Assembly: GCA_021432655.1 (NCBI GenBank) | Contig: MU271217.1 | Location: 19,930 to 61,167, forward strand | Length of the DNA stretch: 41,238 nt | Source: Atractiella rhizophila | Taxonomy: Eukaryota | Reading direction: 5' to 3' | Shown here: positions 1,947-41,238 of the stretch, in pieces | Layout of the letters: every line of letters begins with the position of its first letter | Position numbering within the stretch: the stretch's first letter is position 1 | The notes under the pieces: generated by a model | Seen by the model: the letters and a program-made list of their open reading frames with translations, nothing else | Databases searched by the model: none | What the model was told of the DNA's origin: nothing | Translations under genes and position numbers: made by a program

Positions 1947-2130
1947 NNNNNNNNNNNNNNNNNNNNNNNNNNNNNNNNNNNNNNNNNNNNNNNNNNNNNN
2001 NNNNNNNNNNNNNNNNNNNNNNNNNNNNNNNNNNNNNNNNNNNNNNNNNNNNNNNNNNNNNNNNNNNNNNNNNNNNNNNNNNNNNNNNNNNNNNNNNNNN
2101 NNNNNNNNNNNNNNNNNNNNNNNNNNNNNN
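1947..2130. other. Assembly gap (184 N)
   Basis: Run of n. Confidence 1.
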
Positions 2131-2254
2131 TTGGCGCATCATAACCGTCGTCCCACATCTGCAACTTTTCGTTCATACCCTATTAAAACAACCCGAAAGC
2201 ACACGAAGAACCCCAAGCACGACCGAACCAACCGAACCACCATCTTCCATCCAT

Positions 2255-3409
2255 CTAATCCACCTTGACGCTCTTCGGCGCATGTCGCCTCCCCCTCTTC
2301 GTGTACGACTTAATGAAGAAATTCGAGAAGAGGACGGTGAGAGGAGTGAGGTAAGCGAGGTTGAGGACGGTCGCTAGCTTCTGTCCGTCGCTTGCGAGAC
2401 ATTGGCGACGCCTGATACTTGGTCTGACACTTCGCCGAGGGGGATGCGGATGAAGAGGTAGGAGGCGGCTGTTCCCGAAGCCGACAAGGAATTGGCTACA
2501 TGATTGAAAAGCAGGTCAGCCAGTGAGAAAACGGTAGGAGTAAAAGCACGCACGTGATTTGCATCGTCGTTAAACTGCGTTTGAGAACTAATGGCACGTT
2601 GACTTTCATCGTCGAAAGTGCGTAATAGGTGTACATGACTATGCCATTTTATAAGGAGGCGAAAGTGGGAGAGAGAGAAAACATACTGGTGTGGATGAAG
2701 CTGTTGAACACGCAGAAAATCCAACTGGAAACGCTGCAAACCTGAGAGCCGCCCACATTGTGATGATGGCTCCGGCGTGATGATATTCTTGCAACACATG
2801 TGCTTTCTTTCCCTTGACGAGAATGATGATGGTATCTACCAGACAATCAATCAATGAGGGGCAGGAAGGAAAAGGAAAAGAACATACCGATGACCTCATA
2901 GTATTTCGAGAGGTAAAATACGTAACTCCAATTATTCAATCCCTCCGCCCAAATCCTCCCATCCATATCGCAGTACGTCCTTACGAACCCCTGGGATCCG
3001 TGATACCAGAACGCCTTGATGAAGCTCCCATAGACGAGAGGAGCAGTCTTGCAGAACGTGGCAAAGGAGTAAATTGCCAGTAGAGCGTTGTGGGCGACGA
3101 TGAGGGAGCGAGGAATGTGGAAGGATGGAGTGCATGGACGGGAGCGATTGAAATAGGAGACGGTGAGGAGGTAGACAGTTGCAAAAAGGACCGGAGTGAG
3201 CGGATGGAGAGTCCTGGATTCAGGCAAGACATAAGGTCGCTTCTTTAACATAAACAGTAATGAAGGACATACCACTCCAATAACGGATGCGGCGCACCGT
3301 CCCCGTTCCTGTTAACGAGTCCGAAGATGTCTGGGTACTCGATTGACCAGACTTTGTTGTGCCAGAGGTATCTAGCGATTCGGGAGTCGCTGGAGAATAC
3401 GGCGTCCAT
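2255..3409 (-). CDS. ELO/GNS1/SUR4-family fatty acid elongase, 5 exons, with apparent single-base frameshifts (pseudogene or sequencing error)
   Basis: Spliced motifs FYLSKYYEVI|DTIIILVKGK...LQEYHHAGA, WIFCVFNSFIHT|MYTYYALS...LTTMQIT|QFLVG...AASYLF, LNLAYLTPLTVLFSNFFIKSY...KVD*. ATG at 3409, stop at 2255-2257. Frame breaks near 2724 and 2474. Confidence 0.9.
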
Positions 3410-4960
3410 CTTGTTCAGACTCGAAAGAGGGAGAGTTGAGATGGGATGGGTGGAAAGAGATGCTCGTGGCAAGCGAGAGTGCCTTCGGAAGCAGCCTTTT
3501 GAAGGGAGCCATCCTCCCCAACGAAGAGCTCTCCCCAAACAAATTTTTGACACGCCACGGAGACGCGTGACAAAATAATCGTGATTACCGGCAAGTAACC
3601 GCCAGTAACCGACCGGGATTTGAAAAGAGTAATTATTCCGCCCGACGGAACCGCTGCAAACAACAAAAATTGCTCCACAATCAGTAATTAATCAGTGTTC
3701 CTGTGATTACCTGCAACGGGTTGAAGAGATTGCCGGGGAAGGCGCAACGGAGACGTTTGGAACGTGCGTGATTTACGATTTGTTGGTGGATTGGCCTGAA
3801 CACTCAAAAACAACAAATCGTCTTTGTAAGCTCCTGTGGTTTTAAGCTCACCGTGGAATGAGTGCATACTGGCGCTGTTATCATGCTTCGGTTCGACTGT
3901 TCTATACACAACGATCCTCTTGAGACCGCAAAGATATTGCTTGCGCTTGAACCTCAGCCAGAGCGTCGTCCCTGCTCGTAAACTGAACTCAAAAACAGGA
4001 AGATATACCAACACTCAGATCTTCAGGCTCCTCTCTACGCACATCACATCGTTGAGACCAACGGCGTGGTCTTGAATACCAGAAGTTGAGGACCATCCGT
4101 CTTTACTTTCTATGGAATGTGACTCTGACGAAGGCCTTCATGGTTCTGTCAGCTGATTCTTTTTGGGTGTCTTCTCCATGTAATTTAGACAGAGCAGCAG
4201 ACTGTTAATTGTTGCAATCCATTCTCAATTGGTTCGCCCTGCAGCGAGCAGTGTTTTAGCTTACTGCGATCGGAATTTGAAGCAGCACCTGAGTTCTGAG
4301 GGGCAGCGGCGCAAAGACACGCTTTCATCCATTGTTCTTTGCGCGACCTACTGCAAAGAATGGAAAGCTGAAGGTGCCCCAATTTCGGGTGTGCAAACAC
4401 GTCGCGACGCCAGACTCACGTCACCACTTTTGTGCACAGCCGAAGGTTTGCCCATAAACTTTATAAAAACCACTCATTCACTTGTTATTCCTCGCTCTTG
4501 CCTTTCTTTCCAAACCAATCTGAAAAAGGTCTGAAGGACTTTTGATCGACTGATTCGACGCTCAGCAACAGGACGCTTGGATTTCTTCAGGGCTGAGTTC
4601 TTCGCTGAACTCTCCCTTTTTCCTTCCTTCAACTTCTCTACGATCTACGATCTTACCTACGATCCATCACGATGCCTCTCCCTCCACGCTCTATCATCCA
4701 GACAGCTCATTTCTCGCCCTCGGCACTCTCCGCCAAACCACCTTCTGCCCTTCCTGCCAAATCCTATCTCTTCCTCCAACGAAGGTGTCCGGTCCCTGTC
4801 CTTCGCACAATGCAGTTGTCCTCCACGTTGCCTCGTATTGTCAGCCATTCGGACACGACGTCTGCGCTGGCGTTGGGATCGATTATGGACACATTGAGAG
4901 TGGAAGGAACTGCGCTTACGTCGTGCCGACGGAAGTGGTCACTGGAGGAACTAGGAATGG
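3009..4960. repeat. Copy B of the duplicated block
   Basis: Colinear with 1-1946. Confidence 0.97.
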
Positions 4961-5638
4961 GAGACAGACGGAGAGGAGCGTGGAGGTTTGGGGAGTGTTG
5001 AAGGCGGTGGAGAAGGGGAGGGAGTTGGCGGTTAATTCGTTGAGGTTCGTCCTCCCTCTCTCTTCTTTTTTGGTTATCTGTAGGCAAGCGCTGATATCAT
5101 GTCATGGAACAGGGAAATGGACCGCGCAAAGGTGCCAGGACGTATTCGCAGCTTTGCGGGTCAGATCGGATCCTCATGGGAAGAAGAGGGATACAAACAC
5201 TCCTTTTCCTACTCAGTACCTACGAACGTGAAGGAGATTGTGATCCTCACCTCCTCCCTCTACTTCCTCGACGGCATCATGCTCTCCCCCGACTCCAAGC
5301 CGTGGAGCGGGACCAGGCCGTCCTACCTTTCCAGCAGCGCGACAAAGAATGATGGGAAGCAAAGGAAGCTGAGAGGTCGCAAATACACCTTCTCTGGGAC
5401 CTTGCCCGCACCTCAGGCTAGGATCATAACGTCCCACAAGCCGTCTTCGTCGTGGTTCAGGAAACGAACGTACCCGGCGGCGGTGGATTGGGATCTCTTT
5501 AAAGCGGTGGAGAGGACGATCGCGGAGTGTAATAAGAAGGGAGTCCTCGTGTCATTTGTGAGAGTCAAGAAAGAGGGGAGGAAGAGTCCTGCGTGGACTG
5601 GAGCGAGGATGGCGGCGGCGAGGGGAGGAAGAGATTAA
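4672..5638 (+). CDS. RNase HI-like (Dikarya-type) fold protein, probably catalytically degenerate; frameshifted in this copy
   Basis: The motif series VVLHVASYC / AGVGIDYG / RN / QTERSVEVWGVLKAVE / IVILTSSLYFLDGI / DWDLFKAVE / VSFVRVK parallels RNase H1 (VYTDGxC / AGxGVxFG / RN / QTNQRAEL / IxTDSxY / NxDL / VxFxHV). Intron at ~5046-5082. 1-nt deletion near 4736 relative to copy A. Confidence 0.7.
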
Positions 5639-7397
5639 TTGAAGGAGCGGAATGTTGGACGTTGGACGCAGGAAGGTTGGTAGAGGTGAAGACGGGAGAA
5701 GAGGGGATGGTGAAGACATTGGATTTCAAGTCGGTCGGTAGTTAGTCGTATGTTGGTCATACTCTCGATTTAAAAGTGCGTTATTCTCTAGTTTCCTCTC
5801 TTGACTCATTGTCGTCGGAGCAGCCGAACCCAATACTGCTCGAAAAAAATCGGAAAACACTTTCCACTTTCTTGCGAAACAGCAGATGTGGAAGGCTTAC
5901 AACGTCTCGATCTCACGTTGTTGTATTCTTTCTTCTCCCTCTCCTCTTCCTTGAACCAAATAAACGATCGGTAAGTCTGCTACGATACGATGTCTCGGAT
6001 TTTCGAAAATCTAAAGATCTAAAAAACCGGATAATCTTGTAGGTGCTTTGACAACCCAGTCCTACCTTGAACCTGACACGATTTCTGTGTAAAAGGACAA
6101 CAAAGATATCGTGCCTTTCTCTGCCTCACCCTTACTTCCTCCATGGAATGGTTGGATGATTAAATCGAGTGTCGTTCGTTCATTTACTCCCGTTGGATCC
6201 TGCAATGGAGAGTTGTTGTAGCATGAATGTGTCCTCACGTAAACTTATCAATTAATGAGAGCGTGACATGTGCCATAGTAAGGGTTTCAGATTTTATTAC
6301 ACTTCCTTTCCATCCATCTGTTCGCTCGTCCAGATACGGATGCTGCCGGGATGCAGTCCTCTATGTCGGCCAATGCTTCGTTAAAGTCAAACCTCTCCTC
6401 CATATTGAACGCTAAGCAGGGATTAACTGGGGTAAACAATTAACTAAATGCAGAATATATTGTTCTCTCTCTCGTCCAATATGTTTCATATTTCCACTTC
6501 CCCAAGGTTCACACCGTCATCTTTGTCTCCTTAATGCGTCGAGATGGCACACCAGAAACGGATTGAGCAACGAGTGGTGCATGTGGGATAACACAGATTT
6601 TGAAGAGCGAACTACTCGTATGAAAATATGTATATCTTTCCTCTGCCAAGCCAAGTACGCAATGCCACTTCATTTTATAGACAGTCATACAATGTAATAC
6701 GTTTTTGGCATCATTGATGAAGGTAGCGCATAAAATAATGGGATAATGGAAGCCTTGCAAAAAATTCAAAATTAAGGAACGAAGGAAGGCCTAAGCTTCA
6801 ACCTCGCTATGCTGTATTCTCTCTCTCGTCCCCTTACGTGCGAGACGATACACCTCATTCACTTGCACATACGTTTCCTACTATTTCTGCTGGCAAGACA
6901 CAGAAATGGTGCAGTAGCGGATGGCATCAAAACAAGGTTGCCCGTATTCACATCAATTTTATTTCGATCACATACACAACACCGTTCCCAGCTCCACAGC
7001 ATACAGATTTTCCCGCTTACAATTCTAAACAATTCCCAATCATTTAAAGCAATAAAAATGGTTGCCCAAATCCTTCCTTAGTATTTCTGCTCCACTTCTT
7101 GCTTCCCTATCTCTTTGTCCATTCCCTCCATCTCTTCGAGTACACAGCATTCGTTCGCAACAGGTGGAAGAGATGGAAGTGAATACTCGGATCTAACAAA
7201 TCATTGGATCATGACCATATACATGTCGCTGGCGAGCACAGAATAAACACATATACAAAGTGCAAAACAAGTTCCTGTCACTGTTCCGGAGCCGAAAACT
7301 TTGTTTCTTGCTGCACAAAAAATCAAGACCGCCATCTTGAGCGCACGTCAATTTCCAAGCACAGAATCTCTTTAAAACTCCATCAATTATCCCTATC

Positions 7398-14571: not shown

Positions 14572-17230
14572 TCAAAAGCTTGTGGCTGGTCCAAATCGTT
14601 GCACATGGGTAGGAAGATGAAGTAGAAGATGGAATTTGCGTTTGTTAAACCATTGGGGAGACAGGAGGGCAGTTTTGTTTAGAAAATGATGGATCACAGT
14701 CTCAAGTTCATGGCAATACTGACCTATATCAGAAATCGATGGACGCCATACTAGCCGACACAAGCGACCCAAAGCAACCCAAGCATCCAGTTGAAGCTGT
14801 GAAACAAGATCATGAAGCGCAAAAATAGCAAGTTGAGCTATTATACGGAAGTCTGTGCCAACCAAGCTCTGAGCATATTGCACCAGAGTTTCACCTCGTG
14901 GAGAGGAACATCCAAGTCCGTTCGGGTCAGCAGCAGAGAGTCTCTCAGCGACAAGAGTTTTCTGGCCTTCAGACAACCCATTAATACTCTCTCGCCAGAA
15001 ATACTTGACAAAGCCAAGCAAAATACCATGAAGAATCTCGAAAGGGGTATCTTGATGACAATCAAAAGCATGCAGGTCAAACAAGGGATTGTAGTGCCAT
15101 TTTCTAGCCTGCTGTTCATCTAGACAAGTTTTTAAGTGGGTCCGAATTTCATCTGCATTTGCTTTAGCATCTTCCATTGATTCCGCCAGCTGAAGAAGTT
15201 CTTCTATGAAGTGAGAAACAACAGGGTCTCGTATCCCTGATTTACGCTGCGCATTCGTTATCCGAGTTTTAGAACGAAGATCGGCAGCCATTTGATGAAT
15301 CTCCTGCACCTTGCACTTTGTTTCCTGCATACATCTCGCTTCACCAGTCTGCATAAAATTGGTTATCCCAGCTCCAGTAAGTTGATCACCTTTCTTCTCC
15401 TCACCAACTTTGCACACTCGACAGAACTTCAGGCTTGCTCCTAATGATGGAGAGCAGGAGCAAGCCTCCCCTTGCATAGGATTATCACCCTCAAAGACAA
15501 TTGCAATTGGCCGAAGCAGTAACTCTTCATCCATGACATTGTCATAAGAAATGATTCCCTTGGACCAGTAATCATTGAGTTGCTCAACAACGCCTTCCAG
15601 CAATTCAGTTGCAGAGACATTATTTGAGGTGCCAATGAAGTGGATGTTGAACTCTTGTTGTTGGAGCTGATGCGGCAGGCCAGCAAGGGTCATTAATGCT
15701 GAAATATGCTTATTCCATCGTTTGGATACATTGCCCGAGCTATCATCGTAATAAAGCACCAAAGGAATATTAAGAACTCTCCGTCCTTGGGCAAAATCAC
15801 GAAGAGGATTGGTGAGAGGCATGTTGATGGAGCATAGTTGGCCATCTCGAGTACATTGTGAGATATAAGGGGGAATGAGTGCCGACCTTGATAAGATGCT
15901 AGTGATATTGGCTTCAAACATAGAGACAGGCAATTCTTCTTCATCTTCTGAAATGATCCATCCTCCAGGTTGACCATTCTCGTGCAGGTAAGATCCACGA
16001 GCATAAAGACTTCTTGACTCAGCATGCAGGAACCATCGGAATGGCATGAAGTAATGACCATCCTCTAACTGAACAGCCTCGTTGACAAAGAATAAAGATC
16101 CCTTGACATGTACAGAGGGCGAGAGAAATTGAGCATCAAGCTCTTGTGCCCACTTTGATGACTGCCACATCTCCTGAACTGCTTTGCTGCTGTCTTCTGA
16201 AATGAAGATGCTTCCGAACAAGTGGATTGGCGACCTCCTGTGAAATGATCTTGCCAATGTCATTGAGGTGATAGATGTTACTCTTATGGGTTGTATTCTG
16301 AAGTGTTTGTGGACCAATGTTTTCCTCTTGAAACTGTTGGTGCAACTTGTTCAACCGTGCCTTTGATGGAAGCTTTGGAGGCGGGAGTCCTTTTGCAGAG
16401 CATAACTCTGGAATAATCCACCACAGAAGTTGCCGTAGGGTCTCTGAAATATGATGCCGAGGCAGATTCAATAGAAGATCAGCTAAAGCTTCCTCAAGAG
16501 TCTTGTACGGAAACCAATCACTTGCCGAAGTTTGTGTCAGAAAGGATTCCAAGTCCATATCAGGCTGATCTAGCTGGTTCATCAGGCGGTCCTTCAGGCC
16601 AAGCATCTTCTCTAAAAAAGCTTGATCACATTCTTCCTCAGTCTGTTCTGCCCAAAGTTCCTGCCATGCTTGCTGAGTACACATTTCTCCATCATGCTCA
16701 TTGCTAAAACCAGGATTATCTTCTGGCGGCCATGCAGAAAATACCATCTCATGCATCAGCTGCTGTAATGAAGGTGGGAGAGGATTTGTCCAAACTCACC
16801 GTGCTTGAAGAGAAGCGTGATGTGATGTTGGTTAGGTAAAATCAATGTCATCTGGTCCAAGATTAAATGGTGTCTGAGATTGGCATTCAGCATTATTCAG
16901 ATTTGCTGGCTGTGCAAACAAGCGATTTGGACGATATATTGGCTCAAATTGAAGTCTTAGAGTTGAAGGAGAAGCGTTTGTGGCAGGCTCAGAAGCATCA
17001 GAAGTAGAGATAAGATGAGCATTGTTCCGGTGCTGGTTTGAATTGGCATGCCGTAAGCAGGGATGGTTTTCTTTATTAGAAAAAGCTATTGGGCAAATAC
17101 GACAGTGAAATCGGTTGTCTTTCCACTGGAAATGGGTATAGATCTCCTCAAACGATTTAAAGCAACTCCCTTTAAATGAATTCAGGCATGGTGTTTTCAG
17201 TATTACAACATTGACAATAAGATCTCTCAC
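14572..17230 (-). pseudogene. Basidiomycete DNA transposase-like gene (CMC/EnSpm/Plavaka-like; DDxSGNxSKxWNKH family), disrupted and 3'-truncated
   Basis: N-terminal C2H2 finger CRIC...H.....H; WFPY...DLLLNLPR; NIYHLNDI...ANPLVRKHLHF; PLVLYYDDSSGNVSKRWNKH; GDNPMQ; FCRVC; DTPFEILHGILLGFVKYFW; KFHLLLHL...RFGPA. In-frame TAA at 16832, frameshift near 16198, abrupt end after RFGPA. Confidence 0.8.
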
Positions 17231-17900: not shown

Positions 17901-17986
17901 CACACCTCGCGCAATTCATTGTGAACAAGCCGGCAGTGCGGACACACCTCGCGCAATTCATTGTGAACAAGCCGGCAGTGCGGACA
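17901..17986. repeat. Perfect tandem duplication, 42 bp x 2
   Basis: cacacctcgcgcaattcattgtgaacaagccggcagtgcgga at 17901 and 17943. Confidence 0.97.
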
Positions 17987-18883
17987 GCAGATTACAGTGG
18001 TATTGAGAGGTTTTCAGGTGTGCGTTGCGGTTTTGATGGACTGAGACCCGGTGGTGTTGGACCAAGGGCTGTCTGTCAATGGTAGACGGCCCGTTGCATA
18101 ACCAGAAAATGCAAGGGGTGCCTGGATTAGTTTGTGAGAAGAGTCTCAACACTTACGAGCTGTGCTGGCGTGGGTCAGGCTGATGCGGTTGAGCAAGAGA
18201 TGGCAAACCGGGTAACTTTGATTGAGTTACGAAACCTCCTTCAAGATGTCGTCGATATGCAAACTAGTGGATACAAAGTGTCTGATAATCTCTCAGTATG
18301 CCCCTCTATTCTTTCGTAGACCTTGCTCGTTTCGCTGTGTAGTCACAATTCTATGCCATGGCTCATGCATACATCTTGAATCCAGGTACAGTGTCATTCA
18401 AAGTGGCTCACTCGAAGCTCATGGCAAGCCACTTTGTCTACCTCCAGCTGATTTTCTTACTGAACTAACATTAGGCTGTGGTTAAGTCTCCTGCCTTCAA
18501 GCATATCCTGGCAATTCTCAAGGACAATGCCATTGTGATGAAATTAGTCGGAAGAGATGTACAGCGCCGCTGTACAAAGGCACGTAATGCCATCAAAAAA
18601 TAGGTGGGTTGTGCTTCACTTCTGGCTGTTTTGAGCATTTGATAACAGATCAAGGATTCTATCGAAGAGATGCAGCATATTCAAGACCTAACCAACTATT
18701 TACATCGGTTCAAGCTGGGAACTTACACAAACACTCGCATCTCAGAGTCAGAAATGATGCTTGTCTCAATGCTTGTAAGTTATGTCTGCCCGTCCAATGT
18801 CAGTGATAACGAGAACCTGTCAGGGTTCGAGCCCCTGATATACCTTAAGTACAGACCAAGATGGGTGTAAACACCCATCATTA

Positions 18884-18977
18884 GCTCTTTTAGTTCAGTT
18901 GGTTAGCTGTTGGTCTGTAGCCATTCTGACAGAATGATGGGTTACGTGGGTCGTTGGTTCGAATCCCAGTCCCAGCG
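18884..18977 (+). promoter_or_regulatory. tRNA-Tyr(GTA)-derived Pol III internal promoter (A box 18891-18902, B box 18956-18966)
   Basis: TAGTTCAGTTGG...CTGTAG...GGTCGTTGGTTCGAATCC resembles eukaryotic tRNA-Tyr (TAGCTCAGTTGG...CTGTAG[intron]...GGTCGCTGGTTCGAATCC). Acceptor and anticodon stems do not close. Confidence 0.8.
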
Positions 18978-19123
18978 GCTTACAGCTCCCTGGCCCCCGG
19001 TCCAGGAGTGGTGACCCTGTAGGGGGGTTACGGAGCTGGGGGGTCAGCTACTTAAGTTAACTTTGTTCTGTTGTATTCTGTTGTGTTCTGTTGTGTGGCT
19101 GCTTGTCCTGTGCATCTAGAGAA

Positions 19124-19207
19124 GAGTAAGACCCAAAAGGGGCTGTCCTAGCAGCCATAGGCTGTGAGTAAGACCCAAAAGGGGCTGTCCTAGCAGCCAT
19201 AGGCTGT
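19124..19207. repeat. Perfect tandem duplication, 42 bp x 2, inside the TRIM
   Basis: gagtaagacccaaaaggggctgtcctagcagccataggctgt at 19124 and 19166, plus a partial third copy. Confidence 0.97.
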
Positions 19208-21457
19208 GAGTCAGACCAGAAAGCACACAGACACAAAGATACAAAGAACAAGGGGGGTGATGTCAGGGTTCGAGCCCCTGATATACCTTAAGTACAGACC
19301 AAGATGGGTGTAAACACCCATCATTAGCTCTTTTAGTTCAGTTGGTTAGCTGTTGGTCTGTAGCCATTCTGACAGAACCTAGCGCCGGTTTGTCAAATTT
19401 GACCTTGAACTAGAAAGTCAAGGGAAGAAAGTTATAGTCAAGCCAACGACAGGTCCAGCATCGAAGAAGCGGAAGCAAGCGCGCCGAGCACGCAGACGAA
19501 TTGAACGAAGATGATGAAGCAGAAAACCTTTCATGCTGGGATGCACTGGATCAGGAGCTTCTTACCTTGGCAAAGCTCTCACATGCGGAACGATTCACGT
19601 ATGCCAAGGCCCATCTCAGTATTAAACTGCTCACACTGGTGTTTGGGGAATAGGAAAGCCAGCCAGGTATATGCCGAAGACCTCAATCTGTACAACAGTC
19701 CTCCAGAAAGCGAGACGACGAAATCTCACCGTGCCTTCCACGCATACTTCACTGCAATCCTGCCTCAAATTCTTGCTGCTGGGAACATGGTACAGGCAGG
19801 GGGGCAGGGTTACTAGGGGAATGGGAATGGAGTGAGGTGGTGACATGAGCCAGATGACGGAGGCCCGGCAGGCAGAAGGTGTTATGTTCTTTTTAATGAT
19901 GCGGTCAGTCATATGCTTTTGTTTCGTTTTCTTTGCTCTATCCTGCTATTTCAATCGAATTTAATACCTTTCTTCATTGTATACCCAACTGTCGAGGGGA
20001 GAGGAAGGAGGAGCAGCAAATGCGCCGACCGACACTGGTCATGAAACAGCCGGCTTAGAACCGAAAACCACGTTTTTTTCGGCTGCTATCAGCAGCCTCC
20101 AGTCGATCCCCCTGGGATTCAAATTAGATTCATTAAACGAGTCGCCGGGGAGTCGTCCGGAGGGACGCACGATAGGAGTAACTACATCGAACTCGTTTTC
20201 GAGTCCCTAGAGACGGCAAACGGAGCTGCGCCGGGACTCTCTGCTTCACAGTCCTGACGGAGCTCCCCTGGATTCCGTACCCAACCTGCCGTGTACTCTT
20301 TGAAGCGCTGGCGCAAAATCATGAAGGCAGTCGGCTTATATAAAGCGAAGACATGACCCTTCTCATCCTTCAAGGCCCAGAGCTACTTCACTACCATCTG
20401 TCGATTGCACAAGAACTCTCAAACTATCGATATGGAAACTTCCTCCAGAATTAACCAGTGGAACTTTGTTGTAAGTTCTCTCGCCTTGTTTCAGTTATCC
20501 GTCAGAAGCTGCTTTTCGAAGGAAAAAAGGGAACATACGTACATTATTGAGGTGAATGGCAACGAACATGTCGTCCCTGAAGAGATGGTGTTGGAGTTTC
20601 TAGCTAGATTGCTCGCTTGTACGCATTTTCGCTTTATTCCTATCTGGTAGCAGACATTGAAGGCGGCGCGTAGGCATCATTTGAAACAGCTTCTACGGTT
20701 GAGGTGGAAAACGGTGAGTACACTTGCCCTGGTTGAACTTTGAAAACTAACATTCTCATTTCTTCCAAGATGCACGTGACGGGTTCGATGTTTCGCCACC
20801 ACTTCGACTACCTTCCTCTCTACTTCCAAGCAACAGTTTCTTTCACTCTCTGTGATCAAAGTCTGCCTTTGTGTACACCTATATGTGTAGTCTGCCCTAA
20901 CTCTGTTTGAAACAGCGAGAACAAGACATAACTTAACCTCTCCTGCCTCTGCGTCTCCCTTTATGTCTTAGAAACTTGGATTAGCACACTCCTAATAAAT
21001 GTCACGTAAAAGAGGAGAGAAGAGAGCCGGTGCCAAACCAATCGATGGGGCCGTGTACAAATAATAGCGCGAATTGGATCGGACACTATACTATCGCAGA
21101 CTGCGACAATAGACTAGTTACCTCATGCCTGAACGTTCTGAACAGTGATAACTGATCAAAATGCATCTGGTTCTTCCTCAAGCGTCCTCTTGCTACAGTA
21201 TCGTCGTTCGCACGAGCGTCAACTTAGAAAAAGTGAGTCATCGTCACTGGGTATGGTCCAGCAACTTTCTTTCCATGATACTTGCCCTCATACACAAGAA
21301 ACAATCCCCAGGAGTGAATAGCAAACTATTCAAAAGTGATTTGCACCTTTGTAGAAGCGCATATGTCCGATATCAGCGTCGAGAGTAACAACGTGGATTA
21401 CAGTAGCGTTACATCATTTCGATTAAATTCACACAATTTCGCCACGCCGGCATCAGC

Positions 21458-37718: not shown

Positions 37719-38837
37719 AACTGAAAAATGTCATTTTTCTCACACGGTAGGTTCAGCACGCCCAAAGACGCGTCCTGCCGCATCGGATTACAGTTCTATC
37801 ACACGAAATCTCTAGGTGACGCGCGTGAAAATCATAAAACTGGAATCAACACCTTCGGCACAAAACCTTTTCTCCCTTTGTCTTCCCCCAACATGGGGAT
37901 CGAGGTTTCGTTTGGACGTGTTATTGGGCGAGCACGTCCTGTCTGCACGGTTGCGAAAGGTGCACACGGTGAACTGCATTCATCGGGATTGATATGCATT
38001 ACTGAAAATCAACGCCAAATGTGGCTGAGGGCAAGAGGTGAGAGGAGTAGGCGGTTACGTAACAGACCGCTGCTTCTCTGTGTTTATCAAATTTATCAAA
38101 GCTTGAGCTCAGACAGTTGCATAGATTGCAGCTACTAGAACGAGAGAAAAATGCATGTGGTAGAGCTTTTGGGACGAGAAAATCATTGGTCAATAGTACG
38201 AAAGTGTCATTTGCGCTCGAAAATGGGGATTCTGGGTTAATATGCGCATAGCGTGAGCATAGATCCTTCCTTTCATGCACAGACTGCATCTGATCTCCAC
38301 TTGGGCTAGGACTTCAGGGTCCTGTCCCCAGGAAGCAACTCAGTTGTTTATCGGAGGTGTCACAGAGTTTCTTTCATCACTAAATCGTTCTTGATTGGTA
38401 CGGAGGTACTGGTCCCATCATCCTCGTTCATGAACGGCCTCGACAAGTTGACAACCACATTATCTGTGTGCTAGCCAACGGTAGCTATGCAAACGCCTCC
38501 TAGTTCTAAGAAAGCTCTTCAGCAACTATCGAAAATTGAGAAGCTCGTGACAATGTCTCGACCCAGATTAGGTTTATAAATTGACAATCATCGAAATAGT
38601 ATTTCTCGGTCCATAAAGTATCGCGGATGATTCTTTGGAGCGACTAGCCCTGAAGGTCGTGAGCAAAACCCACAGATTGTCCAGCTTCGATCGAAGCGCA
38701 AGCGGAAGAGGCACGAATATCAGCGGAGACTGTGGAATGTCTTTTATTCATTCTAAATGAGCATCCAATTGCAACGGTTCAGCTCTGGGTTCAGCTACCA
38801 TCCACTCCGAATAAGGAGGAAGGCACCAGCTCACAGG
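37719..38837. repeat. Copy 1 of a >=1.1-kb direct repeat
   Basis: aactgaaaaatgtcatttttctcacacgg...caccagctcacagg recurs at 40123-41238 with scattered substitutions and small indels. Confidence 0.97.
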
Positions 38838-40122: not shown

Positions 40123-41238
40123 AACTGAAAAATGTCATTTTTCTCACACGGTAGGTTCAGCACGCCCAAAGACGCGTCCTGCCGCATCGGATTACAGTTC
40201 TATCACACGAAATCTCTCGGTGACGCGCGTGAAAATCATAAAACTGGAATCAACACCTTCGGCACAAAACCTTCTCTCCCTTTGTCTTCCCCCAACATGG
40301 GGATCGAGGTTTCGTTTGGACGTGTTATTGGGCGAGCACGTCCTGTCTGCACGGTTGCGAAAGTGCACACGGTGAACTGCATTCATCGGGATTGATATGC
40401 ATTACTGAAAAATCAACGCCAAGTGTGGCTGAGGGCAAGAGGTGAGAGGAGTGGGTGGGTTACGTAACGGACCACTGCTTCTTTATGTTTATCAAATTTA
40501 TCAAAGCTTGAGCTCAGACAGTTGCATATACGATTGCAGCTACTAGAACGATGAGAAAAATGCATGTTGTAGAACTTTTGGGACGAGAAAATCATTGGTC
40601 AATGGTACGAAAGTGTCATTTGCGCTCGAAAATTGAAATTCTGGGTTAATATGCGCATAGATCCTTCCTTTCATGCACAGACTGCATCTGATCTCCACTT
40701 GGGCTAGGACTTCAGGGTCCTGCCACCAGGAAGCAACTCAGCTGTTTATCGGAGGTGTCACAGAGTTTCTTTCATCGCTAAATCGGTCTTGATTGGTATG
40801 GAGGTACTTGTCCCATCATCCTCGTTCATGAACGGCCTCGACAAGTTGACAACCACATTATCTGTGTGCTAGCCAACGGTAGCTATGCAAACCCCTCCTG
40901 GTTCTAAGAAAGCTCTTCAGCACCTGTCGAAAATTGAGAAGCTCGTGACAATGTCTCGACCCAGATTAGGTTTATAAAATGGCAATCATCGAAATAGTAT
41001 TTCTCGGTCCATAAAGGATCGCGGATGATTCTTTGGAGCGACTAGCCCTGAAGGTCGTGAGCAAAACCCACAGATTGTCCAGCTTCGATCGAAGCGCAAG
41101 CGGAAGAGGCACAAATATCAGCGGAGACTGTGGAATGTCTTTCATTCATTCTAAATGAGCATCCAATTGCAACGGTTCAGCTCTGGGTTCAGCTACCATC
41201 CACTCCGAATAATGACGAGGAAGGCACCAGCTCACAGG
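40123..41238. repeat. Copy 2 of the direct repeat (runs off window end)
   Basis: Colinear with 37719-38837; start-to-start offset 2404 bp. Confidence 0.97.

Follow-up and report, generated by a model that had tools for sequence, protein, structure and literature searches.

The first nucleotides of an LTR retrotransposon RNA can serve as its own primer, as described for Tf1, in which, according to the extracts of the published account used here, the first 11 nt pair with the PBS (primer-binding site) and RNase H cuts between nucleotides 11 and 12 (PMC7175516). The same extracts record a proposal of self-priming for Tcn1 of the basidiomycete Cryptococcus (PMC7175516), and equivalent proposals appear in excerpts on Tj1 (PMC4600332) and on the relatives of Tf1 and sushi as well as the TAR Copia lineage of plants (PMC6317226). 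The Tf1/sushi-related clades include marY1 and Tcn1 in the excerpted text of the latter paper (PMC6317226), and chromovirus clades of basidiomycetes are listed in an extract of PMC2864245.

A second group of relevant elements is formed by Helenus (Kojima 2024, Biology 13:119, PMC10886601), described in the excerpted text of that paper as TRIMs whose LTR contains a Pol III promoter derived from a tRNA; together with Cassandra and Ajax, they make up the class TRIMp3. Helenus is reported there from Pucciniales and a few Agaricomycetes, with target-site duplications (TSDs) of 5 bp in fungi, and the fungal families were given tRNA primers and mobilization by Copia elements on the basis of PBS assignment and of similarity to Copia families. 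As far as these excerpts go, complementarity between the tRNA-like part of the LTR and the PBS was sought in Helenus and none was found, and Pol III transcription is stated to be unvalidated.

In this study, we describe an element of the Helenus kind in which the sequence that follows the 5' LTR complements the LTR itself. It lies in a stretch of 41,238 nt, referred to below as the window, whose numbering is used throughout. Tf1-like self-priming of this 557-bp TRIM is in our judgment the best reading of the locus, with a probability of about 0.45. Elements of this class are already on record; neither the self-priming variant nor the split promoter is described in the literature searched, and full-text searches of that literature returned no description of a self-primed TRIM or of a self-primed LTR element of the Pol III type. 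The original prediction, in which self-priming was first put forward for this locus, overlooked the published element class, and also a 9-bp hairpin competing for the same 10-mer and a second 10-bp repeat, both of which are described below.

Results

A 557-bp element of the Helenus kind

The element at 18818-19374 is a 557-bp non-coding, non-autonomous LTR retrotransposon, namely a TRIM of the Helenus/TRIMp3 kind, from a basidiomycete fungus. It consists of two 114-bp LTRs with TG..CA ends, identical at 114/114 positions, and of a 329-bp internal region, its total length being under ~1.3 kb, and it is devoid of any ORF. The components of the TRIM architecture, that is, short LTRs, an internal PBS and polypurine tract (PPT) and the non-coding character, are all present within the 557 bp. 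The main parts are the following:

18813-18817, unstranded: left copy of the TSD, GAACC (seen in the sequence and in an empty-site contig of sequencing run X1)
18818-18931, plus strand: 5' LTR of 114 bp, identical to the 3' LTR and ending with CA at 18931
19124-19207, plus strand: a 42-bp unit of the internal region in two perfect tandem copies (seen in the sequence; different in other copies of the element)
19243-19257, plus strand: polypurine tract AAAGAACAAGGGGGG, with TGA between it and the 3' LTR (seen in the sequence)
19261-19374, plus strand: 3' LTR, matching the 5' LTR over its whole length
19375-19379, unstranded: right copy of the TSD, GAACC (same evidence as for the left copy)

The PPT ends 3 nt upstream of the 3' LTR, and its G-run is one base shorter in one X1 contig. 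Besides the two LTRs, no further copy of the element was found in the 41,238-nt window, and a Pfam scan for a helper element gave 0/56 ORFs of the window with a match to an RT or integrase family.

Within the published material excerpted, the likeness to Helenus and TRIMp3 extends to the short non-coding LTR structure with PBS, PPT and box A/B motifs, to the 5-bp TSD and to the occurrence in Basidiomycota, and some Helenus families also have LTRs with the same tgtcag.. or ..ctgaca ends, as well as a PPT ending in gggggtg. The TGTCAG..CTGACA ends do not indicate a Tf1-like helper, given that Helenus LTRs in this material also begin with tgtcagg or end with ctgaca; in the families with those LTR ends, the internal parts open with a PBS class that Kojima assigns to tRNA-iMet's anticodon loop. 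Because these families with the iMet-type PBS share the same ends, neither the LTR ends nor the PPT can tell a Copia from a Gypsy helper on the excerpted data. Unlike the Helenus families in the same excerpts, the LTR described here has only box A and an upstream B-like T-arm, the canonical box B being internal, and a T4 run precedes box A, whereas in Helenus it comes after the tRNA-like part. Finally, the PBS of the present element fits no tRNA class of the published families compared; the stretch of LTR to which it is complementary lies just before the tRNA-like part.

A ten-base match between the LTR and the primer-binding site

The original prediction held that no TGG-initial PBS follows the 5' LTR and that the 10 nt at 18933-18942 are instead the exact reverse complement of 18873-18882 within the LTR. 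Both statements are borne out: the first TGG is found at 18939, 7 nt beyond the LTR end, and the two 10-mers, AATGATGGGT and ACCCATCATT, are present in the sequence as exact 10-bp reverse complements of each other.

18873-18882, plus strand: candidate self-primer ACCCATCATT, the predicted first 10 nt of the transcript (from sequence, shuffles and folding)
18933-18942, plus strand: candidate primer-binding site AATGATGGGT, 1 nt past the LTR (from sequence and shuffles)

The pairing is not extendable on either side, with 18872 C facing 18943 T and 18883 A facing 18932 G. Complements of at least 10 nt starting no more than 6 nt after the LTR arose in 5/20000 shuffles when both parts were shuffled and in 16/20000 when the LTR alone was. 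The 10-bp complementarity between LTR and PBS is confirmed and non-random. The ACCCATCATT 10-mer recurs in the 3' LTR at 19316-19325. In the contigs of the four runs compared (X1, X3, X5 and X6), neither 10-mer shows another letter at the 5% reporting threshold; this invariance carries no weight, because the copies of the element are near-identical throughout.

The arrangement is like that of Tf1-type elements, in which, in the extracts cited above, the post-LTR sequence complements the LTR at the presumed start of the RNA, the duplex is of ~10-11 bp and there is no tRNA-type PBS. Those elements are autonomous, transcribed by Pol II and at least 5 kb long, whereas the present one is non-coding, has Pol III-type boxes and would form a duplex of 10 bp rather than 11. 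By descent it does not belong to the Tf1/sushi chromoviruses, whose Gag-PR-RT-RH-IN and chromodomain are absent here, and it could at most be a parasite of such an element.

A hairpin straddling the end of the LTR had also been claimed:

18922-18936, plus strand: hairpin CATTCTG-A-CAGAATG across the LTR end, overlapping the PBS by 4 nt

In the window, CATTCTG (18922-18928) does pair with CAGAATG (18930-18936), and to this extent the claim stands. However, position 18925 is C in most of the LTR depth of X1 (1103/1438) and in the X5 RNA contig; the CATTCT/AGAATG hairpin is weakened, because this C breaks a pair in most copies. GalEa Copia elements offer a partial parallel, in that their PBS position is taken up by a hairpin-forming sequence touching the last LTR base instead of a tRNA complement (PMC5445492). 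In GalEa, which is found in Pezizomycotina, this sequence is a palindrome of 9 bp in which the last A of the LTR is incorporated (PMC5445492), whereas here the post-LTR sequence is not palindromic and most copies have a disrupted junction hairpin.

Candidate promoter boxes divided between LTR and internal region

The motifs that may direct transcription of the element, together with their surroundings, are these:

18820-18838, plus strand: T-arm-like hairpin with the B-box-like motif GGTTCGAGCCC at 18824-18834 (from motif scan, folding and inverted repeats)
18838-18842, plus strand: ATATA, 31-35 nt upstream of the predicted start (from the sequence; putative function)
18888-18891, plus strand: TTTT, a putative terminator
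18891-18902, plus strand: box A-like motif TAGTTCAGTTGG (from motif scan)
18956-18966, plus strand: canonical box B GGTTCGAATCC, 25 nt past the LTR end and thus internal (from motif scan)

Box A is thus within the LTR, with a B-like motif upstream of it, and the canonical box B is outside. With box A in the LTR and box B in the internal region, a putative A-then-B promoter would exist only at the 5' LTR. Runs of at least four T on the plus strand of the element are limited to 18888-18891 and its copy at 19331-19334. The motif GGTTCGANNCC has three matches in the 41-kb window, all of them within the element, against 0.30 expected.

The original prediction placed the start of transcription near 18873, and the features on which it relied are found at the distances given: 18873 is a purine (A) located 18 nt before box A, and ATATA lies 31-35 nt upstream of it. 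The 10-mer is in register with this predicted start, which falls 11 nt before the +1 of the tRNA-like part.

With its default settings, ARAGORN detected no tRNA anywhere in the window, and a search of Rfam yielded none at E values up to 10. Models obtained with ARAGORN at low thresholds (Val(GAC) at 18898-18977, a minus-strand Thr(TGT) and others) were poor and mutually conflicting, and we judged them to be hairpin artefacts. Since the finders return nothing at default settings and only poor, conflicting cloverleaves below them, the tRNA-like part is regarded as degenerate. The minus-strand Thr(TGT) cloverleaf, at 18818-18885, is composed of both perfect hairpins of this region, and on the plus strand the first of these has the form of a canonical T-arm. 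Release of the 11-nt leader by RNase P, which would then act as primer, was considered and rejected: its 11th base, 18883, mismatches 18932, and the tRNA-like acceptor keeps just 3/7 pairs.

Cassandra, a plant TRIM that uses a tRNA primer, resembles the element in having the promoter of a small-RNA gene in its LTR. This promoter is derived from 5S rRNA and not from tRNA, and Cassandra is found in plants.

Competing helices in the LTR and folding of the RNA

Apart from the 10-bp match to the PBS, the LTR contains further perfect helices:

18850-18859, plus strand: TACAGACCAA, the left arm in a second perfect inverted repeat of 10 bp, with its partner at 18910-18919 (from inverted-repeat search)
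18860-18879, plus strand: perfect 9-bp hairpin GATGGGTGT-AA-ACACCCATC, whose right arm shares 7 nt with the candidate self-primer
18910-18919, plus strand: right arm TTGGTCTGTA, pairing with 18850-18859 in the second repeat; it would be located in U5 (from inverted-repeat search)

Altogether, three perfect inverted repeats of at least 9 nt are found in 18818-18945; among 3000 shuffles, at least two such repeats were obtained in none (0/3000) and one in 74 (74/3000). The LTR as a whole thus consists of helices, among which the 10-bp LTR/PBS pair is not unique. The fold of the 5' LTR RNA has z = -3.88, with 0/200 shuffles as good, and that of 18873-18945 has z = -2.13. The second 10-bp repeat is stacked on the 9-bp hairpin, and its arms in the 3' LTR are 19293-19302 and 19353-19362. 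As arms of this repeat would be at opposite ends of an R-U5...U3-R RNA, the repeat could circularize it.

Folding calculations indicate that the pairing of the 10-mer depends on where the RNA begins. With a 5' end anywhere between 18865 and 18873, the fold-back onto the PBS dominates, 9/10 pairs having probabilities of 0.7-1.0 and the terminal pair of ~0.5, in agreement with the fold-back originally proposed for an RNA with its 5' end near 18873. With 5' ends from 18874 onwards the fold-back is weaker, and with a 5' end at or before 18860 the local 9-bp hairpin wins and the fold-back probability is 0.

The primer-binding site and tRNA primers

A PBS directed to the 3' end of a tRNA must begin with TGG, and one that pairs with an intact anticodon loop needs the complements of U33 and of purine 37, five bases apart. 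Acceptor ends that are rich in A:U pairs and carry a C as discriminator are unusual for cytosolic tRNAs. From tRNA architecture, the TGG at 18939, taken as the start of a PBS, would imply precisely an A:U-rich acceptor end and discriminator C, and by reading of the sequence no window that complements an anticodon loop (U33, purine 37) is present in the first 20 nt after the LTR.

The candidate PBS AATGATGGGT was also compared with five PBS openings taken from Kojima's DataS1 (ggttatgag.., cgattaacag.., gatttacag.., cattatcag.. and tggtagc..), a selection from the published fungal data, and matches none of these five. Six motifs of the element were sought in DataS1 and yielded four matches, three in LTRs and one in an internal region, none of them at a PBS. 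Tf1-like self-priming is held to be the best reading because the PBS matches none of the five openings compared and cannot complement an intact anticodon loop.

Other copies, an empty site and RNA contigs

Parts of the interval 18600-19600 are contained in 24 sequencing runs, of which 13 are recorded as RNA, mostly metatranscriptomes of soil, root and rhizosphere; copies were compared in four runs (X1, X3, X5 and X6), in all cases as assembled contigs. One contig of X1 joins 18811 to 19374 and skips 562 bases, corresponding to the element plus one TSD copy (557 + 5). X1 matches the flanks without difference, and the depth of the empty-site contig is 318 vs 357 for the flanks. The empty site implies that the insertion is polymorphic and recent and, as the two LTRs are also identical, the element is young and mobile. 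Even if self-priming does not hold, 18818-19374 represents a new Helenus-like family, recently active in a soil- or root-associated basidiomycete and with an LTR unusually rich in helices.

Depth in X1 is ~2000-6000 over the LTR vs ~300 over the internal part, and loose ends at 18817/18818 and 19372-19374 run into other flanks, so that solo LTRs or other carriers of the LTR must exist. One DNA contig of the same run follows the LTR up to 19322 (equivalent to 18879, the end of the hairpin) and then, where the tRNA-like part would be expected, runs on for 124 unrelated bases; it may represent an LTR variant or a relative without box A. In X1, X3 and X6, 18 other letters take the place of the internal positions 19115-19165, and a 9-nt insertion is found in X5; the family is therefore in circulation in several internal forms.

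The RNA runs X5 and X6, which come from two studies, provide contigs extending from 18916/18926 to 19262/19292, in which the internal part and the edges of the LTRs are assembled, the LTR core is without cover and the flanks are absent. These contigs hint at transcription of the element. The contig ends (18903, 18916 and 18926 on one side, 19262-19297 on the other) are close between DNA and RNA runs, and 18926 adjoins the variable position 18925; we take them as assembly break points, not readable as ends of the RNA.

A scan of metagenomes with the pattern of the B-like motif followed by box A returned one locus, a bacterial tRNA gene cluster matched by chance. The 20-nt LTR hairpin was found at six loci of the prokaryote genomes scanned, all in Rhodobacteraceae and unrelated, and the viral contigs scanned gave no match.

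Discussion

The self-priming interpretation of the element is coherent and plausible. Transcription, by Pol III or by Pol II, would start at or near A18873, the candidate promoter consisting of the LTR-borne box A and of the canonical box B a short way into the internal region. The first 10 nt of the RNA would then fold back on the complementary 10 nt that begin 1 nt past the LTR, the RT/RNase H of a helper element would cut the RNA after the duplex, as in Tf1, and the freed 3' end would prime minus-strand DNA, copying U5 and the remaining part of R. Termination by Pol III at 19331-19334, the single T4 run in the 3' LTR, would give an R of ~19 nt (18873-18891). At the 3' end of such an RNA, the other copy of the 10-mer would be concealed by the U3 hairpin (19303-19322), and the 10-nt complement between U5 and U3 (18910-18919 with 19293-19302) could bring the RNA ends together for strand transfer. 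Carried to its conclusion, this scheme would make the element a self-contained Pol III retro-replicon of 460 nt, that is, a Helenus-type TRIM without tRNA priming, with the 11-nt 5' leader of the tRNA-like unit as primer, an A/B promoter split in such a way that only the 5' LTR could fire, a 19-nt R set by the T4 run, a masked 3' copy of the primer and an RNA circularized through U5 and U3. In this form, it would be the first non-autonomous Pol III-driven element with Tf1-like priming, and a parasite of a self-priming helper and not of a Copia element primed by tRNA halves, as inferred by Kojima for other fungal Helenus in the excerpted text. We consider the complete scheme doubtful.

Self-priming has its weak points. 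The T4 run situated 16-19 nt after the predicted start could terminate Pol III transcripts early, and R is short, with ~9 nt left for strand transfer once the primer is removed. The LTR contains other perfect helices of equal length, and the 10-bp helix may be structural instead of a primer duplex; moreover, the TGG at 18939 could begin a tRNA-type PBS of an unusual kind. Published fungal Helenus elements, in the excerpted data, use tRNA primers and are mobilized by Copia according to Kojima's assignments, and some of their PPTs end in gggggtg, as here.

Several of these points are shared by the reading in which a host tRNA or tRNA fragment is the primer, either at a PBS beginning with the TGG at 18939 or as a cleaved tRNA pairing within 18932-18955, the fold-back being then one among several structural helices of the RNA, involved in packaging, dimerization or leader folding. 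In the excerpts of Kojima's work, tRNA primers were assigned to the Helenus families discussed, those of fungi use tRNA halves like their Copia helpers and have TSDs of 5 bp, as the element has, and the PPT end resembles that of several families; the two other perfect helices of 9-10 bp in the LTR, unconnected to the PBS, point in the same direction. Even so, we regard priming by a host tRNA as rather unlikely: the PBS is unlike all five openings compared from the published fungal data, its first 20 nt hold no standard complement of an anticodon loop, and a PBS at 18939 would require the A:U-rich acceptor end and discriminator C mentioned above and would lie 7 nt past the LTR, whereas the published internal sequences compared open with the PBS at offset 0-1.

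The complementarity might also act as a conformational switch or in trans, through pairing with the R copy of the 3' LTR (19316-19325) or with a second RNA for cyclization or dimerization, priming being achieved by another route. The presence of the same 10-mer in the 3' LTR, the existence of a second complement between U5 and U3, and the two alternative helices that share 7 nt of the 10-mer, of which the 5' end of the RNA decides the one that forms, are all compatible with such a role. Ty1 uses 5'-3' complementary sequences and serves as a parallel. Nevertheless, a helix at the PBS position with that role alone is without precedent, and transposition would be impossible for an element lacking a primer site, whereas the insertion of the present one is recent, which leaves a switch or trans pairing distinctly improbable. 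There is, lastly, the view of the pairing as a relic or chance by-product of the origin of the LTR, from a tRNA or SINE and by internal duplications, with no present function. It draws on the heptamer GATGGGT, which occurs at both 18860 and 18936 and is common to the PBS 10-mer and the left arm of the hairpin, as well as on the degenerate tRNA-like part, in which no tRNA is recognized at default settings. The shuffle tests oppose chance, and the pairing is located exactly at the PBS site of an element that has recently transposed; a functionless relic is accordingly highly improbable.

Should Tf1-like self-priming be correct, a Pol III promoter and a tRNA-free primer, two unusual solutions among LTR elements, would be united in a single 557-bp element. 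This would mean that TRIMp3 elements can switch the type of helper. From a practical point of view, it would provide a very small substrate, wholly free of coding sequence, on which the cis requirements of self-primed reverse transcription could be dissected, and would draw attention to a class of elements missed by PBS-based annotation tools that seek tRNA complements.

Surroundings of the element in the window

The window encodes fragments of importin-alpha and of a PP1-type phosphatase. For the importin fragment, the named matches checked at an identity of at least 80%, among the 120 relatives listed, bear basidiomycete names (among them Wallemia, Lyophyllum, Rhizoctonia, Microbotryum, Melampsora and Mycena). 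Immediately downstream of the element, a hairpin-forming stretch at 19377-19454 matches a microRNA precursor family below threshold (25.9 bits vs a gathering score of 106), which is most likely due to chance. About 830 bp upstream of the element, at 17901-17984, a 42-bp unit is present in two perfect tandem copies and has no sequence relationship to the 42-bp repeat of the element's internal region. Further upstream, at 14575-16795 on the minus strand, a 592-aa open frame without Pfam match adjoins a frame with a weak MADF-like match (E = 0.0085), and the region of this frame may be the remnant of a DNA transposon.

Larger repeats are present towards both ends of the window. Positions 1-1946 and 3009-4960 form a ~2-kb tandem duplication with a spacing of 3.0 kb and 87-100% identity per block, and an ORF fragment of the ELO (GNS1/SUR4) family (2850-3311, minus strand) is located between the two copies, overlapping the start of the second. 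Direct repeats of ~830 bp occur at the other end (37719-38553 and 40123-40951), spaced 2.4 kb apart with an identity of 94-99%; either a gene duplication or the termini of a further repeat element could account for them.
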